Source: Thermoanaerobaculia bacterium (GTDB lineage: Bacteria > Acidobacteriota > Thermoanaerobaculia > Multivoradales > JAIOJS01). From it: a DNA stretch of 64,000 bases. The number at the start of each line of letters is the position of its first letter. The first letter of the stretch is position 1. This document shows, in pieces, positions 48,936-63,552 of the stretch. Where the stretch lies: assembly GCA_963806095.1 (NCBI GenBank), contig CAWDWV010000003.1:64657-128656 (forward strand), written 5' to 3'. The translations under genes and the position numbers were made by a program. Below the pieces are notes generated by a model. That model saw nothing but the letters and a program-made list of their open reading frames with translations, searched no databases and was not told the origin of the DNA.

Positions 48936-48958
48936 CCTTTCGAGATCGGAGATCGACC

Positions 48959-51178
48959 ATGTACGACAACATCCTCGTCCCCGTCGACAACTCGCGCCAC
49001 AGCAACCGCGCCATCGACACCGGCGTCGAGCTGGGCAAGCGCTTCGGCGCCAAGCTCGTGGGCTGCCACGTCTACGCCGCCAAGATGCACGACTACCGGT
49101 TCAAGCAGATGGAGTTCACGCTCCCCGAGGAGTACCTCGTCGAGCAGGAGCTGCACCGCCAGCGCAAGATCCACGACAGCCTCATCACCATGGGGCTCGA
49201 GCTGATCTCCGACTGCTACCTGGAGTCGATGAAAGCTCAGTGCGATCGCGAGGGCGTCGCCTTCGAAGGCAAGATGATGGACGGCAAGCACTCGATCGAG
49301 CTGGTGCGCGACATCCGCGAGACCGGCTACGACCTAGTGGTGCTCGGCGTGCTCGGCATCGGCCGCACCCGCGACAGCCAGGTGGGCTCGGTCTGCGCCC
49401 GCATCGCCCAGGAGAGCAGCCGCGACGTCTGGGTGGTCAAGCACCTCCCCGAAGCGGACGAGCCCGAGCGCGACACCGTGCTGGTCGGCGTCGACGGCAG
49501 CCCGAAGTCGTTCGGTGCGTTGACCACGGCGCTCGAGCTCTGCCAGCGCTTCGGCAAGAAGCTCGAGGTGATCGCGGTCTACGACCCCTACCTGCACTAC
49601 GCGGTGTTCAAGGGCGTCGTCGAGGTGCTCACCGAGAAGGCCTCGAAGGTGTTCCGCTTCGAGGAGCAGAACCAGCTCCACGAGGAGATCATCGACACCG
49701 GTCTCGCGGCGATCTACCAGTCGCACCTCAACGTCGCCGAGCAGATGGCGCGCGAGGCAGGCGTCGAGTGCAGCAAGACGCTGCTCGACGGCAAGTGCTT
49801 CCAGAAGGTTCTCGACCACGCGCGCAAGAGCAAGCCGTGGGTGCTGGTGGTGGGGCGGCTGGGCGTGCACAGCGCGGCGGACGCCACGGGCCTCGGCAGC
49901 AACACCGAGAACCTGTTGCGCCTGGCGCCCTGCGACGTGCTGCTGACGACGGCGGAGGTGACGCCCGAGCTCGACGTGCGCGCCGAGGAGAGCATCCACT
50001 GGACGCCGGAGGCGCTCTCGCGCATGGAGCGCGTGCCGCCGGCGGTGCTCGGCATCGCGCGCACGGCGATCCTGCGCCTGGCGCTGGAGCAGGGGCACAG
50101 CGTGGTGTCGTCCGACCTCGTCACCGAGGCGATGGAGCGCTTCATGCCCAAGCGGGCTGCCGAGCGCAACCTCAAGCTCGCCGAGGCGCTGGTGCTCGAG
50201 CGCGCCGAGCGCGGCGAGACGGTGATGGTGTGCACCGGCTGCGGCATCGCCGCGCGCACGGCGCAGGCGGTCAAGTGCCAGGTCTGCGGCGGCGAGAGCT
50301 TCGAGGCCCTCGACCCGCAGGCCATCGCCCGCATCATCATGGAAGAGGGCGGCGCCGAGGAGGAGACCACCTACGACGGCCGCAAGGTGCGCTGGACGCA
50401 GGAGGCGCGCGAGGCGTTGCGGGCGATCGACGACCGCTACCAGCGCCGGCGGGCCAAGGCGCGCATCGAGAAGGCGGCCCACGGCGGGCGGACGGACGTG
50501 GTGACGCTGGAGCTGGCGAAGCGGTTCATCGAGGAGGAGACCGGGATCCTCTTCGCGGCGCCGGTGAAGGCGGATGGCGCGGCAGCGAACGGACACGCGA
50601 GCAACGGTCACGCGGCAAACGGGCACGCCGCAAACGGCAATGGGCAGGGGCATGCGAACGGCGCCGGTGCCAACGGGCACGACGGCAACGGGCATGCGCA
50701 CGCCGCCGATGGGCAAGCTGCCAACGGGGCCGCAGCAAACGGCCATGCCGACGAGGTCGACGGGCCTCGGCTCGTGGCGCGCGACGGCAAGGGCGTGCCG
50801 CTGGTCTCGACGCGCGAGTGGACGACGCCGGCGATCGAGCGCATCGTGCGCGTGCCGGCGGGGTTCATGCGCGACCGCACGCAGGAGCGCGTCGAGGCGC
50901 TCGCCGCGGCCGCGGGCGTCGCGACGATCGACCTGCCGCTGGTCGAGGAGGGCATTCAGCTCGGCGTGCAGGCGATGGAGGAGATGATCGCGCAGCAGGC
51001 CGCGGCACCGGCGGTGGCGGCGGCGGCGGAAACGGCACAGCCGGCGGCGTCAGCTTGCCCGTTCGCCCGCGTCGCCGCGGCGCAACCCGAGGCTCTGCGC
51101 GGTCTCTTCCCGCTCGACGAGGTCAGCGTCGTCAGCGAGCTCGAACGGCAACGCCGCGAGCTCGGCACGCAGAGCTGA
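48959..51178 (+). CDS. Tandem universal stress protein (USPx2) + zinc-ribbon + three PCP_red-like domains
   Basis: USP domains: ILVPVDNS..., VLVGVDGSPKS... and VVGRLGVHS. Zinc ribbon: CTGC..CQVC. PCP_red-like repeats: WTPEALSRMERVPPAVLGIAR, RWTQEAREALRAIDDRYQRRRAK and WTTPAIERIVRVPAGFMRDR. Confidence 0.7.
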   Translation: MYDNILVPVDNSRHSNRAIDTGVELGKRFGAKLVGCHVYAAKMHDYRFKQMEFTLPEEYLVEQELHRQRKIHDSLITMGLELISDCYLESMKAQCDREGVAFEGKMMDGKHSIELVRDIRETGYDLVVLGVLGIGRTRDSQVGSVCARIAQESSRDVWVVKHLPEADEPERDTVLVGVDGSPKSFGALTTALELCQRFGKKLEVIAVYDPYLHYAVFKGVVEVLTEKASKVFRFEEQNQLHEEIIDTGLAAIYQSHLNVAEQMAREAGVECSKTLLDGKCFQKVLDHARKSKPWVLVVGRLGVHSAADATGLGSNTENLLRLAPCDVLLTTAEVTPELDVRAEESIHWTPEALSRMERVPPAVLGIARTAILRLALEQGHSVVSSDLVTEAMERFMPKRAAERNLKLAEALVLERAERGETVMVCTGCGIAARTAQAVKCQVCGGESFEALDPQAIARIIMEEGGAEEETTYDGRKVRWTQEAREALRAIDDRYQRRRAKARIEKAAHGGRTDVVTLELAKRFIEEETGILFAAPVKADGAAANGHASNGHAANGHAANGNGQGHANGAGANGHDGNGHAHAADGQAANGAAANGHADEVDGPRLVARDGKGVPLVSTREWTTPAIERIVRVPAGFMRDRTQERVEALAAAAGVATIDLPLVEEGIQLGVQAMEEMIAQQAAAPAVAAAAETAQPAASACPFARVAAAQPEALRGLFPLDEVSVVSELERQRRELGTQS
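50579..50749 (+). repeat. Coding His/Asn/Gly-rich (A-N-G-H)n low-complexity repeat
   Basis: AAANGHASNGHAANGHAANGNGQGHANGAGANGHDGNGHAHAADGQAANGAAANGHA, with a 12-nt periodicity of gcN aac ggN cac. Confidence 0.9.
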
Positions 51179-51219: not shown

Positions 51220-51452
51220 CTTTCGCGATCCATCGATAGGGGCCGGTGAAATCCCGGCATCGAGTCCGTCTATAGTGGAGCCGGCCTCCCGGTAGACGGT
51301 CTTTGGTCAGGATGAGCCCAGCTGGCTCCGCAGGAGCTCGATCCGGGTGTACACCGCGTCGTGGACACCCAAGGGCACGGAGTGTGCCGTCGGCGCGCTG
51401 CCGGTCACTGCCCCTTGCAAGGATCTGCCCGCCAATTCCGTTCGAGGGAGCG

Positions 51453-52454
51453 ATGGACGCATCCCTCCCGACGGCGGCCGATCCTTCAGCGCCGGCTGCG
51501 CCGCGGCTCCTCGACCGCGTCAGCCATCGCATCCGAGAGCGCCGGCTCTCCCGCCGAACGGAGGAGGCCTATCGGCACTGGGTACGGCGCTACGTGCTCT
51601 TCCACGGCAAGCGGCATCCCTCCGAGCTGGGCATCGTGGAGCTCAACGCCTTCCTCTCTCACCTCGCGGTGGAAGGTCAGGTCAGCCCCTCGACGCAGAA
51701 CCAGGCACTGGCGGCGCTGCTGTTCCTCTATCGCGACGTACTGCAGGTCGAGCTCGGGCAGCCACGCGACTACATGCGCGCCCTGCGGCCGCGACGGCTG
51801 CCCATCGTGCTGTCGAGAACCGAAGTGCGCGCGCTCCTCGCCCAGCTCGACGGCACCGAGCGGCTGCTCTGCACGTTGCTCTACGGCGCCGGCCTGCGGT
51901 TGATCGAAGGACTACGCCTGCGCATTCACGACCTCGACTTCGAGCGGCGCGAGATCACGGTGCGCGCTGGCAAAGGCGACAAGGACCGCCGCACCATCCT
52001 GCCCGCGAGCTCGGTGGAAGGGCTGCAGCGGCACTTGGAGGCCGTGCGCCGGCTCTGGGAGAACGACCACGCTACCAACCTCGAGGGAGTCTGGATGCCG
52101 GCCGCTCTGGACCGGAAGTTCCGCGGCGCCGGCCGCGAGTGGCACTGGCAGTGGCTCTTTCCCACCGCGCGTCCCCAGCGCGACCCGCGCAGCGGTGTGC
52201 TGCGCCGTCACCACTTGCTGGACCGAACTCTCCAGCGGGCGGTGAAACTCGCGGCAGGCAAAGCGGGCATCGCCAAGGCCGCCACGTGCCACACCTTGCG
52301 CCACTCCTTTGCAACCCACCTCCTAGAGGCAGGGTACGACATCCGCACCGTACAGGAGCTCCTCGGCCACCGCGACGTACGCACCACCATGATCTACACC
52401 CACGTTCTCAACCGTGGAGGCCTCTGCGTCCAGAGCCCGGCCGACTTCGGCTGA
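51453..52454 (+). CDS. intI: Integron integrase IntI (tyrosine recombinase)
   Basis: The IntI-specific insertion [39 protein letters not shown]. Catalytic boxes are [46 protein letters not shown] and [11 protein letters not shown]. At 333 aa it is similar in length to IntI1. Confidence 0.93.
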
Positions 52455-52614: not shown

Positions 52615-52847
52615 GTGTTACGCGTCAATCGGTGTCGCGTAACACTCGGGGAGCGGTTGGAAGGCGCAGGAATCCTTTGTCGCCACTTGCTTGTGAGTCG
52701 GCGAGATAAGCTGGGACATAACAGCGTGACAGCGCGTTACTTGCGGTCGTCGTCAGGTCTCGGGCTGCCGTGTGTTACGCGACAGCCGCATCCACAAGCT
52801 TGCCGGCCGGCTGGCACTCGACCTGTCGGTTAATCAATGGGTTAGGC
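52615..52847 (+). other. Candidate attI region: repeated GTTAC(G) boxes ending in the GTTAGGC crossover core
   Basis: GTGTTACGCG occurs at 52615 and 52772, with its inverted copy CGCGTAACAC at 52636 (10-bp arms, 11-nt spacer). GCGTTAC is at 52734, GGTTAAT at 52828 and GTTAGGC at 52841-52847. No R'' partner is nearby. Confidence 0.5.
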
Positions 52848-52883
52848 GTCAGAACAACCAGCAGTGGCAGGCGTGAGATCGCC

Positions 52884-53267
52884 ATGAATCAGAGAGCAAT
52901 CGAGGTTTTCGCGGCGCTCTACTTCCTGATCATCGGCCTATCCCACGTCTTCCAGCCGCACGCATGGGTCGACTACTTCATTCGCCTCAGAGATCAGGGC
53001 CGCTCCGGCATGTTCACGGAGGGCTTCCTCGCCCTATCGTTCGGCGCGCTGATTGTCGCCTTCCACAACGTGTGGTCCGGCCTTCCGCTGGTGCTGACCC
53101 TCATCGGCTGGGGTCAGGTCGTCAAGGGAACAGTACGATTCGTGGCACCTCAACTAAGCCTCCGCCTCTACCAACAGGTGGCACACGAGCGTGCCGGCCA
53201 GTTCCGACTCGCCGGTGTCTTTGCTCTTGCCGTTGCGGCTCTCCTCGTCTATCTGCTGCTCCGCTAG
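52884..53267 (+). CDS. Cassette 1: small 4-TM membrane protein, unknown function
   Basis: 127 aa: MNQRAIEVFAALYFLIIGLSHVF.... It is the first ORF after the attI core. Confidence 0.6.
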   Translation: MNQRAIEVFAALYFLIIGLSHVFQPHAWVDYFIRLRDQGRSGMFTEGFLALSFGALIVAFHNVWSGLPLVLTLIGWGQVVKGTVRFVAPQLSLRLYQQVAHERAGQFRLAGVFALAVAALLVYLLLR

Positions 53268-53291
53268 GACACTTCGCGCAAGGGCTTGCGA

Positions 53292-54635
53292 CTGTAGGGC
53301 CGACCGCTCCATTTACACTTTGACCGACCGCTGTGTTTACACTCTTCCTCTTCTTACCCTAGCTGTTCTTCCCATTTCTTTGGTCTGTCTTTGGTACGGA
53401 GTTGCAGCATAGAGCTTGAACTTCCGCTCGTCGAACCTGCCGAGGAGAACCGCTCCGAAGTAGAGAGACCAGACGCCGTCGTCGACCTCTTCAAACCCGA
53501 CGTTCTCCTCGGCCAGGACGCTGCTGATGTTGAGCCAGCGCTTGGCCCAGCGCACGCCGCCGTTGCGGCTGACCCTCCGGATCTCCAGATGACCTGGGTA
53601 CTCGATGCTCGGCTCCTGCTTTGGGTATGGCCGCGGCGAGGGCTGGTACAGCGAGGCCGGCGTTCGCTGGCCGATTCCTTCATGAGGTCGCACGAAGTTG
53701 TACTCGCGGCGGAAGGCGGTGAAGCGACGCTGTTGGGCTCTGGCGTTGCCTGCCGCGGGACGCGTGGTGCTCGCCTTCAGCGTCCGATGCATGCGCTCGT
53801 GGGCTCCGTTCTGCTGGGGCGACGACGGCTCGATCAGCTCAGGCCGGATACCCAGCTTGATCCACCACACCGACAGGCGCGAGAGGCGGCCCAGGGCTTC
53901 GCTGGCAAACGGCACTCCGTTGTCGGTTCGAATCGCCTCGGGCAGGCCAAACTCGCGGAAAAGCCGTTGCAGGACAAGCCTCGTCGGCTGGTACAGCGTG
54001 CCGTCGAGGCTCTGGCAGGCCAGCAGGAATCGGCTGTACCCGTCGACCACCGTAAGCGGATAGCAGTACCTGCCATCGCCGGTCTTGAACTGGCCTTTGA
54101 AGTCCATCGTCCACACTCCGTTGGCCTTCGCCATAGGTGTCGTCGGCCGCCCTGGATGCTCGACCCTGCGCCGCGTTCGACGTCGCCGCACCAGGCCGTG
54201 GCGCTCGAGGATCGAGCCGGCCGTGCTGGGAGCTGGCCAAGCCCGATCTGGCTCGAGCTCCCGCAGCACGGCGACGAGCTTCTTGGGACCCCAGCGAAGC
54301 TTGCGCTTGGCCGCCACCAATGCCTTCTCGATCTCCCGAGAGGTCCGCAGCGGTTGCTGCTTTGCCACCGGCGGGCGATCCGCCAGTGCCGACTCACCGT
54401 CTGCTTCGAACCTCTCCAGCCACTTGTACCCTGTGGGCCGGGAGATCCCGTACCGCTGGCATGCTTCGACCATGCTCAGAGTCCCGGACTTCAGGTCTCT
54501 GATGAAGCTCACGCGCTGGTCCATTCGATCGCTCTCCTTCCACGGCATCGACACCTCCTTGGAGGTGTCCATCGTGATCTACCGTGTAAATGGAGCGGTC
54601 GGTCTAAGTGTAAACAGAGCGCCCGGTCTGTACCG
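53292..54635 (-). mobile_element. IS481-family insertion sequence, copy 1 (1344 bp)
   Basis: Identical over all 1344 bp to 61730..63073. The ends carry repeated GACCGACCGCTNNNTTTACAC motifs in inverted orientation. It encodes a single rve/DDE transposase. Confidence 0.88.
53337..54572 (-). CDS. IS481-family DDE (rve) transposase
   Basis: N-terminal HTH (ACQRYGISRPTGYKWLERF). Integrase core is WTMDFKG...PLTVVDGYSRF...IRTDNGVPF...QQNGAHERMHRTLK. 411 aa. Confidence 0.9.
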   Translation of the reverse strand: MDTSKEVSMPWKESDRMDQRVSFIRDLKSGTLSMVEACQRYGISRPTGYKWLERFEADGESALADRPPVAKQQPLRTSREIEKALVAAKRKLRWGPKKLVAVLRELEPDRAWPAPSTAGSILERHGLVRRRRTRRRVEHPGRPTTPMAKANGVWTMDFKGQFKTGDGRYCYPLTVVDGYSRFLLACQSLDGTLYQPTRLVLQRLFREFGLPEAIRTDNGVPFASEALGRLSRLSVWWIKLGIRPELIEPSSPQQNGAHERMHRTLKASTTRPAAGNARAQQRRFTAFRREYNFVRPHEGIGQRTPASLYQPSPRPYPKQEPSIEYPGHLEIRRVSRNGGVRWAKRWLNISSVLAEENVGFEEVDDGVWSLYFGAVLLGRFDERKFKLYAATPYQRQTKEMGRTARVRRGRV

Positions 54636-54642
54636 TCCTGAC

Positions 54643-54718
54643 GCCTAACCCCTCGTTGCAGCGGACGCTACCCGGGCGTTCGCCCGGGCAGCGCCGCTGA
54701 ACTCATAAGCCGTTAGGC
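54643..54718 (+). other. attC 1 (76 bp)
   Basis: R'' GCCTAAC ... GTTGCAGCGG / CCGCTGAAC stem with an extrahelical G, a central GC hairpin, and R' GTTAGGC. Confidence 0.85.
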
Positions 54719-54744
54719 GGCTCGCTCACCAGCAGAGGTTTCTG

Positions 54745-55059
54745 ATGCAGCCGACCTTCACCGTCATCGTGCCAATCGAGGACGGCTTCTTCATGGAGCA
54801 GGTCACTGGGTCTTCTGCTGCCGAAGCCATCGCAACCTGGGCGCGCGAGTTCCCCGCGGACCTCGTTCCGAGTCTTGGCTTCCCCAACAAGCGCAGCTTG
54901 GTTGGTGGGCTCAAGCGGAATCCCCCTCTGACCTCGCGTGACAATCCCGGCGTGTGGTCGTCGAACCTCCGCACTGGGAAGCGATACATCCCAGTGGTGG
55001 TCGTGCGCACGCAAACCTCAAGTCGCGCACCCTCCAAGCGCCGCGGCAAGCGACTTTGA
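54745..55059 (+). CDS. Cassette 2: hypothetical protein (104 aa)
   Basis: A single ORF between attC1 and attC2. No family was recognised. Confidence 0.55.
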   Translation: MQPTFTVIVPIEDGFFMEQVTGSSAAEAIATWAREFPADLVPSLGFPNKRSLVGGLKRNPPLTSRDNPGVWSSNLRTGKRYIPVVVVRTQTSSRAPSKRRGKRL

Positions 55060-55065
55060 TTCGCC

Positions 55066-55141
55066 GCCTAACCCCTCGTTGCAGCGGGCGCTACCCGGGC
55101 GTTCGCCCGGGCAGCGCCGCTGAACTCATACGCCGTTAGGC
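55066..55141 (+). other. attC 2 (76 bp)
   Basis: GCCTAACCCCTCGTTGCAGCGGGCGCTACCCGGGCGTTCGCCCGGGCAGCGCCGCTGAACTCATACGCCGTTAGGC. Confidence 0.88.
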
Positions 55142-55175
55142 GGCACTCGGAACACTCGCGTATTGTCAGCATCGC

Positions 55176-55892
55176 GTGGAAGAAGAGACCGGACTCCAGC
55201 GCAGGCTTAAGCGGCTCAAGGGCCATCCGATCGTGTTGATCGTCGGTGTGCTCGGTGCTCTCCTTGTTTGGCTCGTGAAGGTGACTGATTCTGCCGAGAA
55301 GCTCGCTAGCTTGGTCTCTCGCGATCAGCCTCACGCAACGGCAACGGCAACTCCCGGGGTTCAGCCGCCGGATATCGCACAAGGCCACTCTGCTGCTCCC
55401 CAGTCGAGCCCTCTGCAAGCTCCGCTCGCCGAGATACGCGTGTTCCCTCTAGCCGAAGAAGCGGAGAGCCGTCAGCTCATCACCAAACTCCGAACGGACG
55501 CTGGCCTTCGCTCATTGTCGGTGGTCGAAACTGGCGCCCGCCTCGAGAACGCCCCTTCGGGGACCTTCTTCACGATGAGGGTCATCGACATAGTGGCGGC
55601 ATCGCTTTCCCAGGAGTCCAGGATCAGTTCTCGTCCCGTGAACAACTCCGACTACGAGATCCATCGCCCGCCTCGGAATGGTCCATTGCTCCTCGCATAT
55701 GTAACTCCCACTGACGCAGCCAAGCTCAGCTCGCTTCGTACTTCCGAGGCCCAGGTCCTCTTCACGCCGATACCCTTCGGACCGTTCTCAGTCCTTGCAC
55801 TAGTTCCAATCGATCGGCTCACAGCCCTAACCCCGCGTTACCTTGACACTTCCGACAGTTCTGTCGCGGCACTTGACGCAACTGTTCGGTAG
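55176..55892 (+). CDS. Cassette 3: hypothetical protein with an N-terminal TM helix (238 aa)
   Basis: TM segment IVLIVGVLGALLVWLV, then a Pro/Ala-rich linker and a globular domain. No family was recognised. Confidence 0.55.
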   Translation: MEEETGLQRRLKRLKGHPIVLIVGVLGALLVWLVKVTDSAEKLASLVSRDQPHATATATPGVQPPDIAQGHSAAPQSSPLQAPLAEIRVFPLAEEAESRQLITKLRTDAGLRSLSVVETGARLENAPSGTFFTMRVIDIVAASLSQESRISSRPVNNSDYEIHRPPRNGPLLLAYVTPTDAAKLSSLRTSEAQVLFTPIPFGPFSVLALVPIDRLTALTPRYLDTSDSSVAALDATVR

Positions 55893-55907
55893 GGCTCGCG
55901 CGGTGCC

Positions 55908-55982
55908 GCCTAACCCTTCGTTGCAGCGGGCGACAACCGGGCTTCGCCCGGTTGCCGCCGCTGAACTCAAGCGCCGTTAGGC
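55908..55982 (+). other. attC 3 (75 bp)
   Basis: R'' GCCTAAC at 55908 and R' GTTAGGC at 55976, with the same stem family. Confidence 0.88.
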
Positions 55983-56014
55983 GACACTCGGACCGCACAC
56001 AAGGGCCAGCCATC

Positions 56015-56686
56015 GTGAAGATCGGATCGCTCCGCATGGCAGTGTGGGTTGCCGCCTCTGCCGTTGTGTTGGCGACGCTCCTCTATTCCAGCTTTCGGGT
56101 AGGCGATCCCCAGTTCCTTGACGCAGCCATGAGCGGGCTGTTGTCGACGATCGTCGGTGTTGCACTTGGCGTCCCGGTGGGATTAGAGCTTGCCCGTCGG
56201 CAAGCAGCTGCAGACGAGTCCGCACGTACCGCGGCTGAACGGCAGTCCGAATTGCAGTACCTTGATCAGGTCGTCACCAACGTAGCGCTAGAGCTCGACG
56301 GGAACAGAGACCGACTGCGGCGGCTTCACGAGGTGCTCGACAGTGCGCCGAAGCCCAGCGCCGAACTTTGGGCCGCTGCCGTTGCCGTCGCGGACTCGTT
56401 CGCTTATGCAGCCTTCGACCACTTGCGCACGCTCCCGAATCTCCGGAAGCACTTCGAGCATCACGTCCTTGTCCTCAGCGTCTACCCGTCACTTCGGACT
56501 GTTGCCGCCGACATTCATGCTGCCGAGGCGCTTCACAAGTTCCACATGGGGTTCTCGTTAAATGAGGCTGCTGCCTGCGAGCAGTTTGACTCCATCAAAC
56601 AGTCCGTCGACTTTGGACACTCCGTCCTCGAAGATGCCGTGAAGTCCTGCGATCGCCTCCTCGACCGCCTGCGCAGTGTCGCTTAA
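56015..56686 (+). CDS. Cassette 4: hypothetical 2-TM + helical-domain protein
   Basis: VWVAASAVVLATLLY and LLSTIVGVALGVPVGL, then a helical region. The TAA stop lies inside R'' of attC4. Confidence 0.55.
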   Translation: MKIGSLRMAVWVAASAVVLATLLYSSFRVGDPQFLDAAMSGLLSTIVGVALGVPVGLELARRQAAADESARTAAERQSELQYLDQVVTNVALELDGNRDRLRRLHEVLDSAPKPSAELWAAAVAVADSFAYAAFDHLRTLPNLRKHFEHHVLVLSVYPSLRTVAADIHAAEALHKFHMGFSLNEAAACEQFDSIKQSVDFGHSVLEDAVKSCDRLLDRLRSVA

Positions 56687-56756
56687 CCCCTCGTTGCAGC
56701 GGACGCTACCCGGGCATTCGCCCGGGCAGCGCCGCTGAACTCATAGGCCGTTAGCC
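56681..56756 (+). other. attC 4 (76 bp)
   Basis: R'' GCTTAAC and R' GTTAGCC (variant cores) with the same internal stems. Confidence 0.8.
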
Positions 56757-56802
56757 GACACTCGGGCCATCGTTAAATGCTCAACATCGTCAAGACGCCA
56801 CC

Positions 56803-57795
56803 GTGAAGTTGACCCGCGCCCAGATCGAGCGAGAAGTCTTGTACACCCGCAGCTTCTTCGGGAGCGGCGATTTCGTGCCCACGGAATCGGCTGCTGCGAT
56901 CGAAGAGCGTTGCGCCCAGCTGATCCACTCCTTCGAGGTCATGAGAAAGGCGGTGGAACCGCTGCGGCCCGGCGAACACGCCATCGTGACTTTGACCCGC
57001 AGGAAGACAGCCGCGCTCCTGGCTGACCGAGTTTGGGGGGCCGACACGCTGGCCGATCTCGCGATTAACTTCGGCTGGGAACTGCCGCTGGAAGTTCGTC
57101 TTCGGGCGATGCTCCGCCTCCATCCGTACTTCGAGCGTTCGCCGTCCGCCCCCAAGGTGTCCCCGACCTCACAAGCCGAGACGGAGTCATTCTTGGCGGA
57201 CGTAGAGCGCGACTTGGCCCTCGGCCTTGCTCAGGCCAGCGGGGCAGCAGTCTCTCCTCTCTACAGTCTTGCCTCCAGGCGGGACCTCCAGTATCGCGGG
57301 GGTGACCAAGCGGCCATCGTCTGCATCGTCGACCAACTCGCGATCGTTGACGAGGATCAGATGTCGTGGGAACAAGTCGTAGAGTTCCGCCGTGATCAAG
57401 CTGCCCGCAAGGCCCACAGACGATTCGTGCACTGGCTCGATCGCGAGATGATCGACAAGCCAGTTCAGTACATCGCCGATGACCTTTCGCAACGCCTCGA
57501 ACGGTATGCATGGTCCTTACGGAAGCACGGGATTCAGACCGTGATCGGCTCGTTGAGCAACACCCTGAATCCCAAGTCACTCGTCGCGTCTTCAAGCGCT
57601 GGCGTCGCAGTCAACGTCATCACCGGCCAACCGCTCTGGTCGCTGCTAGCCACCGGCGGCTTGCTGCTCGGGAACGCGGCACTTTCTCTAGCTACTGCGC
57701 TTGTAGAAAGGCGAGACCTTGAGATGGCGTCTCCGGAGATATCCTACGTACATCAGCTGGCCGGAGAACGACGGTCTGATGCCCCGACGCTCTGA
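56803..57795 (+). CDS. Cassette 5: hypothetical 330-aa protein with C-terminal TM helices
   Basis: A soluble N-terminal ~250 aa, then GVAVNVITGQPLWSLLATGGLLLGNAALSLATAL. No family was recognised. Confidence 0.55.
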   Translation: MKLTRAQIEREVLYTRSFFGSGDFVPTESAAAIEERCAQLIHSFEVMRKAVEPLRPGEHAIVTLTRRKTAALLADRVWGADTLADLAINFGWELPLEVRLRAMLRLHPYFERSPSAPKVSPTSQAETESFLADVERDLALGLAQASGAAVSPLYSLASRRDLQYRGGDQAAIVCIVDQLAIVDEDQMSWEQVVEFRRDQAARKAHRRFVHWLDREMIDKPVQYIADDLSQRLERYAWSLRKHGIQTVIGSLSNTLNPKSLVASSSAGVAVNVITGQPLWSLLATGGLLLGNAALSLATALVERRDLEMASPEISYVHQLAGERRSDAPTL

Positions 57796-57810
57796 GCGAC
57801 CGAGAGTGTC

Positions 57811-57886
57811 GGCTAACCCCTCGTTGCAGCGGACACCACACGGGCGTTCGCCCGTGTGGTGCCGCTGAACTCATACACCGTTAGGC
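57811..57886 (+). other. attC 5 (76 bp)
   Basis: R'' GGCTAAC and R' GTTAGGC, with flanks GAGTGTC / GGCACTC that extend the stem. Confidence 0.88.
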
Positions 57887-57919
57887 GGCACTCGGAGCAC
57901 GAGAGGTAGGCTCGAGTCC

Positions 57920-58315
57920 GTGAAGATCAAGAAGCGCTCGGGCTCGCCCATCGGCAAGGCCGCCCGCAAGGGATTCCGTGGCTATCCTGTCGCCACAGTT
58001 GCGTTCTATGGGCCCGACGATCGCCGCGCCAGCAAAGTGGCAGTCGGCATCGTACTGTCGGAGGGCGCCGAGCCCGACATTCTCGAGCGCTGGTTCTCCG
58101 ACACTACGGACGTCCGGTTCGACCGCCGCATCGCCTCCGAGATCCAGGCATTTCTGGCTCGCAACGGTGCGAAGACTGTGGTCACGACGGGCGAGATCAA
58201 CGGCGGTCCACACGAAGAAGGCATCGACTATCCCGAAGGCGATGTCTGCCCCCAGTGTCCGTTCTGGGCCACCGTCGACCGCTGGACCCATGAGCGCCTC
58301 CCCCCATCGCAATGA
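57920..58315 (+). CDS. Cassette 6: hypothetical protein (131 aa)
   Basis: A single ORF containing CPQCPFW. No family was recognised. Confidence 0.5.
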   Translation: MKIKKRSGSPIGKAARKGFRGYPVATVAFYGPDDRRASKVAVGIVLSEGAEPDILERWFSDTTDVRFDRRIASEIQAFLARNGAKTVVTTGEINGGPHEEGIDYPEGDVCPQCPFWATVDRWTHERLPPSQ

Positions 58316-58346
58316 CTTCCCAGACACTCCTCGGCATCTTGCCGCT

Positions 58347-58424
58347 GCCTAACCCCCCGCTGCAGCGGACAACAACCGCGCGTTCGCCCGGTTGTTGCCG
58401 CTGAGCTCTCATACGCCGTTAGGC
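58347..58424 (+). other. attC 6 (78 bp)
   Basis: R'' GCCTAAC at 58347 and R' GTTAGGC at 58418. Confidence 0.85.
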
Positions 58425-58465
58425 GTCACTCGGAGCGCTCTTACACTCCCCAAGGAGGTTGCGGA

Positions 58466-58984
58466 ATGAGCCAAGAAGGTGGCGAGACCTCTGGTCTTGA
58501 TGACGCTCTCTACCAAGGTGCGCTAGCAGAGAAGCACCACTACGACAACCTGTCGTGGACCATCGGCGCAATCGCATTGATCGGCGCTGGCGTACTCGTA
58601 GTTGGGGTCATGCAGGTACCGGGCGCAACCTACCTCGCCCGACTCCCTAGCCAACTGGCGCTCGCGACACTAGCGGTAATCCTTCTGGAGGGATGGCGTC
58701 GCATCTATGAGCGCAATCGGTTCTGGGCTGAAGTCGCCAATGAGAAGCTACGTGACCTCGAGCGTGCACGAGGCGTCGAAGGCGTCACTCTCTCGTTCAT
58801 GAAGGCCGCGCTAACCGGTCAGGTAGTCCTCCAGAACCTCGACCACACTGGTGCGCCGTTTCGCGACCCCTATGTCGAGCGGTGCAGCCAGCACTCAATG
58901 CACGTCAACATCAATAGGGTACTTTGGTTCGTGATGGTCGTTGTGGTTATCTTTGCCCTCCTCCCTCATAGTCCCAAGCAGTGA
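58466..58984 (+). CDS. Cassette 7: hypothetical 3-TM membrane protein (172 aa)
   Basis: AAGGAGG RBS. TM segments are WTIGAIALIGAGVLVVGV, LALATLAVILL and VLWFVMVVVVIFALL. Confidence 0.6.
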   Translation: MSQEGGETSGLDDALYQGALAEKHHYDNLSWTIGAIALIGAGVLVVGVMQVPGATYLARLPSQLALATLAVILLEGWRRIYERNRFWAEVANEKLRDLERARGVEGVTLSFMKAALTGQVVLQNLDHTGAPFRDPYVERCSQHSMHVNINRVLWFVMVVVVIFALLPHSPKQ

Positions 58985-58985
58985 C

Positions 58986-59027
58986 GCCTCTAAAACCCCT
59001 CGTTGCGGAACTCATACGCCGTTAGGC
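58986..59027 (+). other. attC 7, abnormally short (~42 bp) and lacking the central hairpin
   Basis: GCCTCTAAAACCCCTCGTTGCGGAACTCATACGCCGTTAGGC. R'' is interrupted and the variable loop is deleted. Confidence 0.55.
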
Positions 59028-59157
59028 GTCAAGCCGATTCAGCCGTGAGACTGAGCCGTGTCTAGAGACACGGAGGTGAACTCCATGCGCGGTGCCGTCC
59101 CGAGTGGCCGCCCGGGACAAAAGAAGAGGGCAATGGTGCCTGGTATCATCGGCACAC

Positions 59158-59898
59158 ATGGCTAGATGCACGGCACCAGTTCGAGGCCACCGCACAGCGA
59201 GCGCTGCAGCGGACTGCCCTGCATGCGGTGGCCGCTATCGCGGCTACAGCGGATACGGTGGCTACAGCGGCTACCGGCCGAACTCGTCCCCCTCCTACTC
59301 GTCGGGGAGCAGCGTGGGCGGCGGGAGCAGCGTCGGAGGGTCCGGCAGCAGCGGGAGGCCGAGATGGTCGCGACCCGGTTCGTCCGTGGCCTACACGCCT
59401 GCCGAGGTGCGGGCTCTCACGCCGGTCCGCGCCAGTATCGAAAGGCGAGCGCCCTTGCCCGACCTTCGGGACGTCTTTCTCTGCCATGCGTGGGACGACC
59501 GGCTAGGGCCTGCCAAGGAACTGCACGACTTGCTTGAGTCAGTCGGTGTGTCGGTTTGGTTCAGCGAGAAGGACGTCGTCCTCGGCACGCCGTTGCTCCG
59601 TGAGATCGACAAGGGTCTGGCGAAGTCGCGAGTTGGGATCGTGCTGGTGACTCCTGCGTTGCTGCGCCGTCTCCAGGCAGAGGGCATCGCCGACAAAGAG
59701 CTTTCGGCACTCCTAGCGCGCGACCTGCTCGTCCCCATCGTGCACGGCACGACGTACGAAGCTCTTCGCGAAGTCAGCCCCCTTCTCGGCTCGCGAAGCG
59801 GCTTGAGTACAGCAGAAGGACCGATGGCAGACATCGCGGCCAAGCTCGGCGAGTTGGTTGCCTTCAGTCCATTGCCGGGTTCGGGCGTCGCGAGCTGA
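59158..59898 (+). CDS. Cassette 8: TIR-domain protein with an N-terminal Cys pair and a Gly/Ser/Tyr-rich linker
   Basis: DVFLCHAWDDRLGPAKELHDLLESVGVSVWFSEKDVVLGTPLLREIDKGLAKSRVGIVLVTPALL matches the bacterial TIR pattern (DVFISH..D...A..L...L...G..VW.D). GTG 59092 is an alternative start. Confidence 0.75.
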   Translation: MARCTAPVRGHRTASAAADCPACGGRYRGYSGYGGYSGYRPNSSPSYSSGSSVGGGSSVGGSGSSGRPRWSRPGSSVAYTPAEVRALTPVRASIERRAPLPDLRDVFLCHAWDDRLGPAKELHDLLESVGVSVWFSEKDVVLGTPLLREIDKGLAKSRVGIVLVTPALLRRLQAEGIADKELSALLARDLLVPIVHGTTYEALREVSPLLGSRSGLSTAEGPMADIAAKLGELVAFSPLPGSGVAS

Positions 59899-59940
59899 TG
59901 CCCAGCTCCTCGGTCGACAAGGTTCGCGCGGGAGCTTGAC

Positions 59941-60115
59941 GCCTAACCCGTCGCTGCAGCGGACAGCATCGGTGGTTCACACGCGGGGCGTTTTAGGGGT
60001 TCAGGGCCGCACGGCAACACGCCGTCGGTCATGCCGCGTGCGGAGCACGCGTCCTGCCCGTCGGCTTATGGCGTTCTGCCGCCGGGCGCTGCCGCTGAGC
60101 TCAAGGCCGTTAGGC
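59941..60115 (+). other. attC 8, atypically long (175 bp) or two degenerate attCs flanking an ORF-less remnant
   Basis: R'' GCCTAAC is at 59941 and R' GTTAGGC at 60109. An internal degenerate L'-R'-like copy (TTCACACGCGGGGCGTTTTAGGGG) lies at about 59975-59998, and an R''-like GGCTTAT at about 60062. Confidence 0.6.
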
Positions 60116-60131
60116 GGCAGGGGGGACGACC

Positions 60132-60719
60132 GTGACCACCCAACAGCGCGAAGGATTCCCGCCCAACTTCAGGGCGCAGGCACCGGCGTCGGAATCGGCA
60201 CTGTCGGCTGTTCGCGAGGCGCTTCCCGCCACGATCGGCGACGACTACTTCGCCTTTCTGGCGACTGCAAACGGTGGCGAAGGCTTTATCGGCGACTCCT
60301 ACGTCGTCATCTACTCAACGGACGACGTTCTCGCCTTGAACCGGGCCTACGAGGTCCACAGGTTCGCTCCCGGATTGGTCCTCTTTGGCTCAAACGGCGG
60401 CGGCGAGGCGTTCGCCTTTGACAGCCACTCCCAGGCGGCAAGCGTGGTGCAGGTACCCTTCATCCCGCTTCGTGCCCAACTCGCTGAACCGCTAGGCAAC
60501 AGCTTCTCGTCATTCCTCGAAGGTCTTCTCGCCGCGCAAGTCGACCCGCCGCCAGAGATCAACGACGACACGTTTGGCATGGAGGTCCACGAGATCAAGC
60601 CCGTCGTCTTCGGTGGCGACCCAACGGACCACGGTAACAAGGCCCTGATCCCTCGCCCGCAGCATCCGCCGTTGGTCGTCTTCTGGAACGACACCTACCA
60701 GAAGGTTACGGGTCAGTAG
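60132..60719 (+). CDS. Cassette 9: SMI1/KNR4 (SUKH-1) family immunity-type protein
   Basis: LPATIGDDYFAFLATANGGEGFIGDSYVVIYS and LVLFGSNGGGEAFAFD fit the SUKH-1 pattern. Confidence 0.65.
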   Translation: MTTQQREGFPPNFRAQAPASESALSAVREALPATIGDDYFAFLATANGGEGFIGDSYVVIYSTDDVLALNRAYEVHRFAPGLVLFGSNGGGEAFAFDSHSQAASVVQVPFIPLRAQLAEPLGNSFSSFLEGLLAAQVDPPPEINDDTFGMEVHEIKPVVFGGDPTDHGNKALIPRPQHPPLVVFWNDTYQKVTGQ

Positions 60720-60729
60720 GTGACCTGCC

Positions 60730-60806
60730 GCCTTACTCCCTCGTTGCAGCGGACACCACCCGGGCATTCGCCCGGGCGGTGCCGCTGAACTCATACGCCG
60801 CTAGGC
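60730..60806 (+). other. attC 9 (77 bp) with mutated cores
   Basis: R'' is GCCTTAC and R' is GCTAGGC. The internal stems are conserved. Confidence 0.7.
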
Positions 60807-60856
60807 GGCACAGGAACCGACATCGATCCTGCGCCATCGCCAAAGACCAAGAGCCC

Positions 60857-61318
60857 ATGCCCGCCGACCGCTGGACCAACGCCGACTTTGATCAGCTTTC
60901 GTGGCATGACAACCACCTTCATGGCTTCACCGTTCGTGAGGGCGAGCAAGCGCTTGGCGAGCTCGCCCTGGACATCGACTTCATCTTAGAGTGGCTCTGC
61001 GACAAGGACTCGGGCTCATGCGAGTTCCGAATCGCACCAGCCACTCTCACCTTCCACGAGGTCTCGGACCTCGTCGTCGCCCTCGACTACGTCACGACAA
61101 CGGCCGCCTTGTGCCCAGCCAGCATTGGCGAGATAACGAGGGAATCGCGGGCCGACCCTAGCGGCTACCGAACGTTCAATTGGCGCATCGACATCAACTG
61201 GCCCGCAGGGTGTATCCGCTTCATCGCCAGCGGCTTTTCGCAGATCCTCAGAGCCGCGCCGATCGTGGTGCCACAGCAGTACCTTTCCCCTGGTCAACGT
61301 CTTTCAGTCTCTGACTAA
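60857..61318 (+). CDS. Cassette 10: hypothetical protein (153 aa)
   Basis: A single ORF, MPADRWTNADFDQLSWHDNHLHGF.... No family was recognised. Confidence 0.5.
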   Translation: MPADRWTNADFDQLSWHDNHLHGFTVREGEQALGELALDIDFILEWLCDKDSGSCEFRIAPATLTFHEVSDLVVALDYVTTTAALCPASIGEITRESRADPSGYRTFNWRIDINWPAGCIRFIASGFSQILRAAPIVVPQQYLSPGQRLSVSD

Positions 61319-61365
61319 CTACTTCATCCTGGCACGAAGAGCGAAAGCGTACCAGCAGCGAGGAC

Positions 61366-61441
61366 GCCTGACCCTTCCTTGCAACAGAGGCTTCCCGGGC
61401 AATCGTCCGGGCCGCACCGCTGAGCTCCTGGGCTCTTAGGC
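61366..61441 (+). other. attC 10 (76 bp), degenerate
   Basis: R'' is GCCTGAC and R' is CTTAGGC. The stems are diverged (TTGCAACAGAGG / CCGCTGAGCTC). Confidence 0.6.
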
Positions 61442-61486
61442 GACAGTCGGAACATCGGTGAATCTCGAACTAGTCAGACCGGCTCA

Positions 61487-61735
61487 GTGCTCATGCACCC
61501 GACTAAGAGTGATCGCGGTCTAGGCTTTTGTCTCGCGGCCTTCGCGGCTCGGCTGCTGCTTCCAGCAGCCTACGTTGCCGCGATAACGGTCTATCCGATC
61601 GCTCGCTTCGACTTCGGAGTTGGCGCCGCTCTGCTCTGGATCCTGATTTCCGTGTTCATCGTGCCCACCAGCGTTCTCATTCTTGTGCTGCGGGGCCGCC
61701 GCCGTCCTCAGACGGGCGAATGGGCTCGTCTGTAG
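61487..61735 (+). CDS. Cassette 11: small 2-TM membrane protein, 3' end supplied by the IS
   Basis: 82 aa. The TAG stop at 61733-61735 lies inside the left end of IS copy 2. Confidence 0.5.
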   Translation: MLMHPTKSDRGLGFCLAAFAARLLLPAAYVAAITVYPIARFDFGVGAALLWILISVFIVPTSVLILVLRGRRRPQTGEWARL

Positions 61736-63073
61736 GGCCGACCGCTCCATTTACACTTTGACCGACCGCTGTGTTTACACTCTTCCTCTTCTTACCCTAG
61801 CTGTTCTTCCCATTTCTTTGGTCTGTCTTTGGTACGGAGTTGCAGCATAGAGCTTGAACTTCCGCTCGTCGAACCTGCCGAGGAGAACCGCTCCGAAGTA
61901 GAGAGACCAGACGCCGTCGTCGACCTCTTCAAACCCGACGTTCTCCTCGGCCAGGACGCTGCTGATGTTGAGCCAGCGCTTGGCCCAGCGCACGCCGCCG
62001 TTGCGGCTGACCCTCCGGATCTCCAGATGACCTGGGTACTCGATGCTCGGCTCCTGCTTTGGGTATGGCCGCGGCGAGGGCTGGTACAGCGAGGCCGGCG
62101 TTCGCTGGCCGATTCCTTCATGAGGTCGCACGAAGTTGTACTCGCGGCGGAAGGCGGTGAAGCGACGCTGTTGGGCTCTGGCGTTGCCTGCCGCGGGACG
62201 CGTGGTGCTCGCCTTCAGCGTCCGATGCATGCGCTCGTGGGCTCCGTTCTGCTGGGGCGACGACGGCTCGATCAGCTCAGGCCGGATACCCAGCTTGATC
62301 CACCACACCGACAGGCGCGAGAGGCGGCCCAGGGCTTCGCTGGCAAACGGCACTCCGTTGTCGGTTCGAATCGCCTCGGGCAGGCCAAACTCGCGGAAAA
62401 GCCGTTGCAGGACAAGCCTCGTCGGCTGGTACAGCGTGCCGTCGAGGCTCTGGCAGGCCAGCAGGAATCGGCTGTACCCGTCGACCACCGTAAGCGGATA
62501 GCAGTACCTGCCATCGCCGGTCTTGAACTGGCCTTTGAAGTCCATCGTCCACACTCCGTTGGCCTTCGCCATAGGTGTCGTCGGCCGCCCTGGATGCTCG
62601 ACCCTGCGCCGCGTTCGACGTCGCCGCACCAGGCCGTGGCGCTCGAGGATCGAGCCGGCCGTGCTGGGAGCTGGCCAAGCCCGATCTGGCTCGAGCTCCC
62701 GCAGCACGGCGACGAGCTTCTTGGGACCCCAGCGAAGCTTGCGCTTGGCCGCCACCAATGCCTTCTCGATCTCCCGAGAGGTCCGCAGCGGTTGCTGCTT
62801 TGCCACCGGCGGGCGATCCGCCAGTGCCGACTCACCGTCTGCTTCGAACCTCTCCAGCCACTTGTACCCTGTGGGCCGGGAGATCCCGTACCGCTGGCAT
62901 GCTTCGACCATGCTCAGAGTCCCGGACTTCAGGTCTCTGATGAAGCTCACGCGCTGGTCCATTCGATCGCTCTCCTTCCACGGCATCGACACCTCCTTGG
63001 AGGTGTCCATCGTGATCTACCGTGTAAATGGAGCGGTCGGTCTAAGTGTAAACAGAGCGCCCGGTCTGTACCG
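61730..63073 (-). mobile_element. IS481-family insertion sequence, copy 2 (1344 bp, identical to copy 1)
   Basis: Offset by exactly 8438 bp from copy 1, in the same orientation and with an identical transposase ORF. Confidence 0.88.
61775..63010 (-). CDS. IS481-family DDE (rve) transposase (identical to 53337..54572)
   Basis: The 411-aa translations are identical in the ORF track. Confidence 0.9.
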   Translation of the reverse strand: MDTSKEVSMPWKESDRMDQRVSFIRDLKSGTLSMVEACQRYGISRPTGYKWLERFEADGESALADRPPVAKQQPLRTSREIEKALVAAKRKLRWGPKKLVAVLRELEPDRAWPAPSTAGSILERHGLVRRRRTRRRVEHPGRPTTPMAKANGVWTMDFKGQFKTGDGRYCYPLTVVDGYSRFLLACQSLDGTLYQPTRLVLQRLFREFGLPEAIRTDNGVPFASEALGRLSRLSVWWIKLGIRPELIEPSSPQQNGAHERMHRTLKASTTRPAAGNARAQQRRFTAFRREYNFVRPHEGIGQRTPASLYQPSPRPYPKQEPSIEYPGHLEIRRVSRNGGVRWAKRWLNISSVLAEENVGFEEVDDGVWSLYFGAVLLGRFDERKFKLYAATPYQRQTKEMGRTARVRRGRV

Positions 63074-63080
63074 ACGTGTC

Positions 63081-63158
63081 GGCTAACCCCTCATTGCAGC
63101 GGACACCACCCGGGCGTTCGTTCCGGCGGTGCCGCTGAGCTCACACGCCGTTTTAGGC
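63081..63158 (+). other. attC 11 (78 bp)
   Basis: R'' GGCTAAC, with R' carrying a TT insertion (GTTTTAGGC). Confidence 0.75.
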
Positions 63159-63175: not shown

Positions 63176-63550
63176 GTGACAACTCAAGGGCCGTACCTGA
63201 ACAGAGCCTACGCAGTGCTCGCCTGGCTTCTGGTCGCTCTTGCCGTCCTGCACATGGCCACTACATTCCGGCTTACCTCGGCTAGTGCATCTACCAAGGT
63301 CTGGTTCTTCTCGGCGGGTTTCGCGATGGCTCAAACTGCGGCCTTAAACCTCCTTCATCGCCAGTACGGCCGCTCGCTGCGGGCTCTGAGCTGGGCCACT
63401 CGCGGTTCCAACGCTCTCCTACTCGCGGTTTCGGTCGCTGGCGGGCTCGCCACGGGTGCCGGCGTAGCGGAGCTCGCCGTCGTACTCGGCGTACTCGCCG
63501 CCATCCTTGTCCTGTCTTTCATCGACGGTGCTGAACTCATACGCCGTTAG
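63176..63550 (+). CDS. Cassette 12: small 4-TM membrane protein (124 aa)
   Basis: GTG start after AGGGGGA. TM-rich sequence (AVLAWLLVALAVLHM...). The last 7 codons are encoded by an attC right half. Confidence 0.55.
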   Translation: MTTQGPYLNRAYAVLAWLLVALAVLHMATTFRLTSASASTKVWFFSAGFAMAQTAALNLLHRQYGRSLRALSWATRGSNALLLAVSVAGGLATGAGVAELAVVLGVLAAILVLSFIDGAELIRR

Positions 63551-63552
63551 GC
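63530..63552 (+). other. attC 12 remnant (right half only)
   Basis: GCTGAACTCATACGCCGTTAGGC with no R''/L'' partner upstream. Confidence 0.6.

Follow-up and report, generated by a model that had tools for sequence, protein, structure and literature searches.

To our knowledge, two dedicated parasites of integron attC sites have been known so far, the IS1111-attC insertion sequences (ISs) and the group IIC-attC introns. Here, we compare them with a pair of identical, directly repeated ISs in a 64,000-nt stretch of contig CAWDWV010000003.1 from a Thermoanaerobaculia bacterium (the window), where each copy stands at the same distance from an attC site of an integron. The repeats appear to be two copies of an active-looking, 1342-bp IS from a large, mostly soil-borne clade with IS481-type DDE transposases, and the junctions of its relatives indicate that this clade very probably hunts the outer flank of attC sites. 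The transposase type has not previously been linked to integrons; the literature (full text; ISfinder not covered) held no description of attC targeting, or of targeting of repetitive extragenic palindromic (REP) sequences, by IS481-type elements.

Elements of the IS1111-attC group are not known to make a target duplication. Those described (ISPa21, ISPst6 and ISKpn4, of the IS110/IS1111 family) are specific for attC and insert near its 5' (R'') end, antisense to the cassettes (PMC3001079); they combine a DEDD transposase with a seekRNA, an element-encoded guide to the target, and the same family has REP-targeting members such as ISPa11 (PMC11187229). The element of the window shares with them the attC end and the polarity, and the REP-targeting members find a parallel in subclades of its relatives that lie beside REP-like hairpins. 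The machinery is different. IS1111-attC elements have a DEDD enzyme, derive their seekRNA from a long non-coding region and insert inside attC, whereas the present IS has neither that enzyme nor such a region, encodes a DDE (rve) transposase, and inserts in the same orientation-specific way at the 5' end of attC but at 5 bp from R'' on its outer side, duplicating 3 bp and leaving attC intact. An RNA guide is ruled out for it, because its non-coding DNA amounts to 62 and 44 nt only, which leaves no room for one.

The nearest mechanistic analogue, by comparison of geometry and protein architecture, is the IS1202 family, whose dif/pdif hunters ISAjo2 and ISAba71 insert in one orientation, 5 bp from a recombinase-binding arm, with a 3-5 bp duplication; their authors suggested tethering to the bound recombinase, XerC at dif sites (PMC10132070). 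The likeness extends to a DDE enzyme in which two N-terminal helix-turn-helix (HTH) modules accompany an RNaseH fold and a beta barrel, and to additional sites near the ends for transposase binding. In contrast, the IS1202 targets are XerC/D dif-like sites, and the transposases, of 441-457 aa and related to TnpAjo2, would by their description belong to another family. The ISNCY_2 model scores 35 bits here versus 223 for IS481, although ISNCY_2 is not necessarily the IS1202 model.

IS1397 and ISKpn1, of the IS3 family, insert into the loop of REP/BIME (bacterial interspersed mosaic element) palindromes, have two frameshifted open reading frames (ORFs) and make short duplications. They resemble the present IS in their DDE enzyme, in the kinship of IS3 and IS481 and in a palindromic repeat target, but differ in having no known integron link. 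Group IIC-attC introns enter the bottom strand of attC near its 5' end, beside a stem-loop and in antisense direction to the cassettes, and their IIC relatives use other palindromes (PMC3001079); they differ in being retroelements (ribozyme and reverse transcriptase) that insert within attC itself. A DDE family at the same attC end, in the same polarity and at a fixed distance would represent a strong convergence on attC, and a parallel to the IS1202/dif case at another tyrosine-recombinase site.

The repeated element and its transposase

The segments 53292-54635 and 61730-63073 are identical over all 1344 bp and lie in direct orientation, as an earlier, sequence-only reading of this DNA had stated; in a pairwise base comparison, the shared stretch grows by 0 bases on either side, and chance cannot account for a 1.3-kb exact repeat with unrelated flanks. 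On the right, beyond ...GGTCTGTACCG, copy 1 is followed by tcctgac and the R'' heptamer GCCTAAC (54643), and copy 2 by acgtgtc and GGCTAAC (63081). The 7-nt spacing given in that reading is correct for the 1344-bp block, since 7 differing bases separate it from R'', but the distance from the true IS tip is 8 nt. Relatives and an empty site place the ends of the IS proper one base inside the block on each side (Table 1), the extra shared base per side arising because the flanking triplets are GAC and GTC. In both copies, the 8 nt comprise 3 nt of duplicated target and 5 further nt. On the + strand the IS runs TGTAGG...CTGTACC and in transposase orientation GGTACAG...CCCTACA, and the transposase of both copies is antisense to the cassettes.

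The sequence-only reading had named an rve/DDE enzyme of IS481 type, and the family searches agree. The best match is NCBIfam NF033577 (IS481; 223.0 bits versus a cut-off of 224, over model positions 1-283 of 284), the runner-up is IS3 (106 bits versus a cut-off of 160), and the Pfam matches are HTH_28, HTH_32, LZ_Tnp_IS481 (25.2 vs 22.2), rve and rve_3. Across 35 homologues, D157, D217 and E259 do not vary, nor does a block of positions in the C-terminal part, and, as in IS481 elements, a single ORF carries the DDE (rve) core with no programmed frameshift. In an AlphaFold model (mean predicted local distance difference test score, 77.7), the RNaseH core is joined by two helical modules for DNA binding and, at residues 330-388, by a beta domain of seven strands; the predicted order of folds, HTH-HTH-RNaseH-beta-barrel, finds its best structural matches in IstA, TnsB, MuA and retroviral integrases. 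Exact-protein look-ups with the transposase starts giving 411, 403 and 395 aa returned no match.

Classical members of the IS481 family (IS481, IS1002) make a 6-bp duplication at NCTAGN; for the family as a whole, the ISfinder description gives terminal inverted repeats that begin TGT and target duplications of 4-15 bp. The present element shares with classical IS481 the single-ORF rve transposase and the leucine-zipper/HTH N-terminus. It differs from them in its asymmetric ends, with TGT at one tip only (TGTAGG at 53293) and GGTACAG at the other, in a duplication that measures 3 bp in its relatives, though 4 bp in one subclade, in a C-terminal beta-barrel of ~100 aa beyond the family model, and in its attC target. 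On these sequence features, it is best placed as a divergent IS481-type IS whose duplication length and end sequences are atypical.

Each end of the IS holds two copies of the 21-bp motif GNCCGNNCGCTNNNTTTACAC, which has eight matches in the window, all within the IS copies, versus 0.02 expected; these repeats resemble transposase binding sites. The tips common to the relatives are GGTACAR-ACCGGG at the transposase-proximal end and ...CA at the other. The possibility that the target mimics the IS ends was ruled out, as the subterminal motif is TTTACAC here versus GGTAACA in most relatives while the target GTTAG is constant. Sigma-70 consensus scans found no outward promoter or terminator in the IS, a negative that weighs little for a genome of ~70 % G+C.

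Junctions at attC sites and their proposed recognition

Our sample of relatives comprises 163 loci (L161-L163 among them) from at least six phyla, of which 80 are genome loci, 80 are metagenome loci and 3 come from exact look-ups; the best relative in the genome collection has 67 % identity. Homologues of the transposase number roughly 7,900. The IS ends and the target duplication are fixed by an empty site in a paralogous cassette (...GTTAGGC GCGCG GCC CTCGCG... in L013) and its filled counterpart (...GTTAGGC GCGCG GCC[GGTACAG...GGTCA]GCC CTCGCG... in L012), which also set the gap to the heptamer at 5 nt. In STL-ACI13, a single-contig Thermoanaerobaculia genome, all five copies (5/5) have perfect 3-bp direct repeats (GCC, GTC, ACG, TTC and GCC), and elsewhere an exact 3-bp duplication is present in 14/70 elements, where about 1-2 would be expected by chance. 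Among the other elements, many come from short-read contigs, whose two flanks around such a repeat may stem from different loci.

Three of the nearest relatives, L081 (97 % amino acid identity), L162 (86 %) and L163 (64 %), each adjoin a different attC that ends 8 nt before GGTACAG. Of 133 distinct 5' junctions, 68 have GTTAG, the bottom-strand form of R'', at 7-9 nt from the IS tip on the outer side; the distance from the end of the heptamer to the tip is 7 nt in 17 junctions, 8 nt in 42 and 9 nt in 9. Any other offset has GTTAG in at most one junction, the expectation being ~0.055 per offset. The relaxed box GTTRR raises the number to 74, and some junctions classed as 'other' bear degenerate boxes such as GTTATGC, GTGAGGT or GCTAGGC. 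These counts support the recognition of attC that the sequence-only reading had suggested from the two copies of the window. That reading had also held that copies at unrelated sites would speak against it; the relatives checked on this point lie 8 nt from R'', with L161 as the exception.

Folding of the upstream DNA points in the same direction. Because minimum-free-energy hairpin calling over 150 nt upstream was too noisy, it was replaced by anchored folding and by a covariance model made from seven IS-free attC sites of the window in bottom-strand orientation. In 55 of 65 GTTRR junctions, anchored folding closes a hairpin in which the box is base-paired with the distal end of the segment, and in the clear cases this distal end reads YTAAC and single-base bulges lie on the 3' half, the signature of an attC bottom strand. 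The covariance model finds 84 hits in the loci on the transposase-sense strand and 6 on the opposite strand; hits end 7-10 nt from the IS tip in 21 of the 118 junctions checked, always in the same orientation, and by coordinates at least three more (L012, L013 and L039) have a hit at this distance. Whole attC arrays enclose the IS in L012 and L013 (9-10 sites) and in L039 and L059 (6-7). For the strand of the cassettes, ORF ends were at most suggestive in L039 and L059; in L012 and L013, where TAA occurs in both R boxes, they gave no information. The conserved positions upstream of the IS are the R'' heptamer and the L'' box (GtC.GCTgCA), not the duplicated triplet. Taken across the clade, the IS is consistently found outside attC, next to R'' and hence towards the cassette ORF, and its direction is antisense to that of the cassettes, with a specificity for attC that appears high, not absolute.

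Two explanations would make the spacing something other than a choice of the transposase. If the attC moved together with the IS, or if the two sites were copies of one larger duplication, the spacing would be inherited, and the two adjoining attC sites are indeed alike, as are those of the whole array. For the window copies, a larger duplicated block, which the earlier reading had raised itself, is excluded: identity stops at the IS ends, and the next 7 bases and the attC sequences differ. With an attC without IS at the empty site in L013, and with the adjoining attC varying from copy to copy in multi-copy genomes, an inherited spacing retains practically no probability. The other explanation is survivorship, in which insertion is near-random and only copies in the neutral gap between cassette ORF and attC persist. 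Cassette arrays tolerate insertions and about one third of the clade junctions lie elsewhere, yet selection cannot give a spacing fixed within 1 nt together with one orientation in 68/133 junctions from many phyla; moreover, copy 2 truncates an ORF, and the same 5-nt rule holds at REP-like hairpins. We regard survivorship as very improbable.

On the reading that we favour with good confidence, the IS always inserts on the cassette-ORF side of attC, with its transposase sense strand continuing the attC bottom strand, and duplicates 3 bp of target, beginning 5 bp beyond the R'' box. Most likely, the transposase would recognise the R''/L'' arm of attC itself, probably in the form of a stem or hairpin, and cut at a set distance from the base of that structure. 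Recognition of a stem or hairpin is favoured over plain sequence because the same 5-nt rule holds at unrelated stems. In two Acidobacteriaceae metagenome-assembled genomes, 8-9 nt separate the IS tip from a preceding 20-nt REP-like hairpin (GGCACG-N8-CGTGCC or CCCAGCGC-N4-GCGCTGGG). Relatives with 45-47 % amino acid identity (L065-L072, L079-L080 and L073) show this spacing from such hairpins, and in L065-L072, where 6/8 copies show a 4-bp duplication, 5 nt again separate the stem base from the duplication.

In the main alternative, the transposase would dock on the integrase bound to the R''/L'' arm rather than on the attC DNA. Such tethering to IntI would match the ISAjo2/ISAba71 case in orientation, in the 5 bp from the arm, in the short duplication, in the extra end sites and in the HTH-HTH-DDE-beta-barrel architecture (PMC10132070); IntI is related to XerC/D, and the intI gene lies 0.8 kb from copy 1. 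Against this, sister subclades use REP-like hairpins or other repeats, where no IntI is expected, and GTTAG at a fixed distance with a conserved L'' box fits DNA reading equally well. We consider tethering unlikely, though far less so than survivorship.

Several points limit the evidence on targeting, duplication and family placement. In sequence data, a transposase that recognises a hairpin looks the same as one that recognises duplex DNA or bound IntI; the family model scores 1 bit under its curated cut-off; the exact IS is known from two copies and a few short metagenomic contigs; the close relative L161 (81 %) is not at attC; the junctions away from a recognisable attC make up about one third of the clade; and L081, L162, L163 and L161 are without matching triplets, which in short-read contigs may come from chimeric assembly across the repeat.

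As insertion spares the attC, the IS becomes a passenger within a still-mobile cassette, so that such ISs could travel with cassettes; they would also block read-through from the cassette promoter. A protein-only system of this kind would be suited to asking by what means an enzyme that cuts and integrates gauges its distance from structured DNA. In its broadest form, which we put forward tentatively and at somewhat less than even odds, the proposal is that a widespread, undescribed IS481-type lineage reads folded or palindromic sites (attC bottom strands, REP-like hairpins) and integrates 5 bp from the stem base, constituting a third class of element, mechanistically unrelated to the other two, that converges on one end and polarity of attC, would ride as a cassette passenger and, as the swapped triplets suggest, could return excised multi-cassette circles to arrays without IntI.

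Further features of individual relatives were observed. L001 has two IS copies within a 7-kb locus (2933 and 5490), each 8 nt from a GTTAG heptamer; at 2870-2910 of L040, the IS tip is nested beside the end of another copy; L104, L110 and L151 share another flank (...GAGCGAATGCGAG) directly before the tip; and L069 and L071 have a common 5' flank and different 3' flanks. In a sister subclade with the tip GGTACGGTCCGGCG, 3-5 tandem heptamers precede the IS just upstream of the 5' tip, e.g., GGACATA, GAAGTCA, CTCTCAA or AATCACT/GATCACT (L033 at 2840-2905; L097, L099, L100 and L126; L140-L149), and may represent the target, something that the element generates or a portion of the element.

Exchanged triplets and the 8.4-kb block

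The repeat pair has a period of 8438 bp. The ten cassettes said by the sequence-only reading to be bracketed are recovered as ten cassette-equivalents, namely, the attC of cassette 1, cassettes 2-10 in full and the cassette 11 ORF. As also noticed there, copy 2 supplies the stop codon of cassette 11, whose ORF ends CTG TAG within the IS; without the IS, the frame would stop at the TAA inside R''.

On the + strand, the flanks read GAC-IS1-GTC ... GTC-IS2-GAC, such that neither copy has a direct duplication of its own, while the outer pair and the inner pair match. The check for target-site duplications proposed with the sequence-only reading thus gives a divided answer: the 3-bp duplication is present in relatives, but in the window the triplets are exchanged between the copies. 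A cointegrate should show the pattern t-IS-d ... d-IS-t, and so should the product of an IS-bearing circle that integrates by homology into a resident IS; we give such an origin a slight preference, and the swapped triplets suggest that the present arrangement was itself made by a recombination event. An IS-bearing circle of ten cassettes would have fused beside another attC, through replicative or dimer transposition or through IS-IS homologous recombination. The implied circle would consist of the IS, the attC at 54643, cassettes 2-10 and the cassette 11 ORF, the form of an IntI-excised multi-cassette circle, and its implied target would be the flank of the attC at 63081, behind the cassette 1 ORF. 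With either pairing, the cassette 11 ORF originally ended at the R'' TAA, and the IS put CTG TAG in place of its final codons.

The cointegrate evidence is thin because GAC and GTC differ in the middle base only; they are also mutual reverse complements. The flanks could instead stem from two independent attC-targeted insertions with a crosswise match by chance and no cointegrate or recombination history. The single differing base would make such a match easier, the corresponding first position of the triplet weakly favours G upstream of other attC sites of the array, and many relatives lack matching duplications. However, relatives in contiguous assemblies have direct 3-bp duplications where neither copy here does, both crosswise pairs match exactly, and the copies are 100 % identical, so that independent insertion appears the less probable course, although one to be taken seriously.

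It is reasonable to regard the 8.4-kb segment as deletable by recombination between the direct repeats, and repeats of this kind would more generally allow deletion, amplification or re-insertion of cassette blocks. ISs of the clade also probably break many short-read environmental integron assemblies exactly at cassette ends. A Logan contig of 2818 bp from run ERR12035939 encodes an identical IntI and the identical DUF2065 first cassette and ends 54 nt past the DUF2065 ORF, ~29 nt beyond the point at which IS copy 1 begins in the window, as a repeat-induced assembly break would give.

Integron setting and feature coordinates

The IS pair sits in what its sequence identifies as a genuine chromosomal integron, with an integron-type integrase gene adjoining an attC array with co-oriented cassettes. 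The intI ORF scores 446 bits with TIGR02249 (cut-off 265) and matches Pfam Phage_int_SAM_4 and Phage_integrase, and its homologues carry the source label integron integrase. It is co-directional with the cassettes, an unusual, 'inverted' integron layout. GTTACGC heptamers occur only three times in the window, and their cluster is probably attI, read as such because of its place between intI and the first cassette. From 54643 to the window end, about 12 attC sites lie on the + strand (profile and covariance model), the cassette ORFs, including all those of cassettes 2-10, are on the + strand and end at or within R'', and the G+C content falls from ~71 % to 63 % within the array.

Table 1 Coordinates of the integron and IS features in the window. 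Bit scores of attC sites are from a covariance model trained on other attC sites of the window.
Feature	Position	Strand	Remarks
intI	51303..52454	+	longest ORF; called 333-aa product would start ~51453; same strand as cassettes
Probable attI region	52617..52780	+	GTTACGC at 52617 (+), 52637 (-), 52774 (+)
Cassette 1 ORF (DUF2065)	52770..53267	+	stop 25 nt before IS copy 1
Triplet GAC, left of copy 1	53290..53292	+	matches triplet right of copy 2
IS copy 1	53293..54634	-	1342 bp; ends set by relatives and the empty/filled pair
Two 21-bp subterminal repeats (GNCCGACCGCTNNNTTTACAC), transposase-distal end	53298..53342	+	
Transposase gene, copy 1	53337..54572	-	411 aa, single ORF; D157, D217, E259
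Two 21-bp subterminal repeats, transposase-proximal end facing attC	54584..54628	-	
Triplet GTC, right of copy 1	54635..54637	+	matches triplet left of copy 2; then 5-nt spacer ctgac
attC beside copy 1	54643..54718	+	R'' GCCTAAC, R' GTTAGGC; 104.8 bits
Cassettes 2-10	54719..61441	+	attC ends 55141, 55982, 56756, 57886, 58424, 59027, 60115, 60806, 61441
Cassette 11 ORF	61487..61735	+	last codons replaced by IS copy 2; stop TAG 61733-61735 within IS
Triplet GTC, left of copy 2	61728..61730	+	
IS copy 2	61731..63072	-	1342 bp; transposase gene 61775-63010 (-)
Triplet GAC, right of copy 2	63073..63075	+	then 5-nt spacer gtgtc
attC beside copy 2	63081..63158	+	R'' GGCTAAC, irregular R' end (GTTTTAGGC); 64.0 bits

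The attC at 59941-60115 is ~175 bp long versus ~76 bp for the others, and the sites at 58986-59027 and 63524-63552, recognised over the R'-side half only, may be degenerate or truncated. Seven of the nine scanned ORFs of cassettes 2-10 have no Pfam match. Between the IS copies lie a TIR_2 protein (59092-59898; E = 4e-13) and a SUKH-1/SMI1 immunity-type protein (60132-60719). Upstream of intI, the ORF 48545-51178 encodes two universal-stress-protein domains and PCP_red-type repeats by Pfam.

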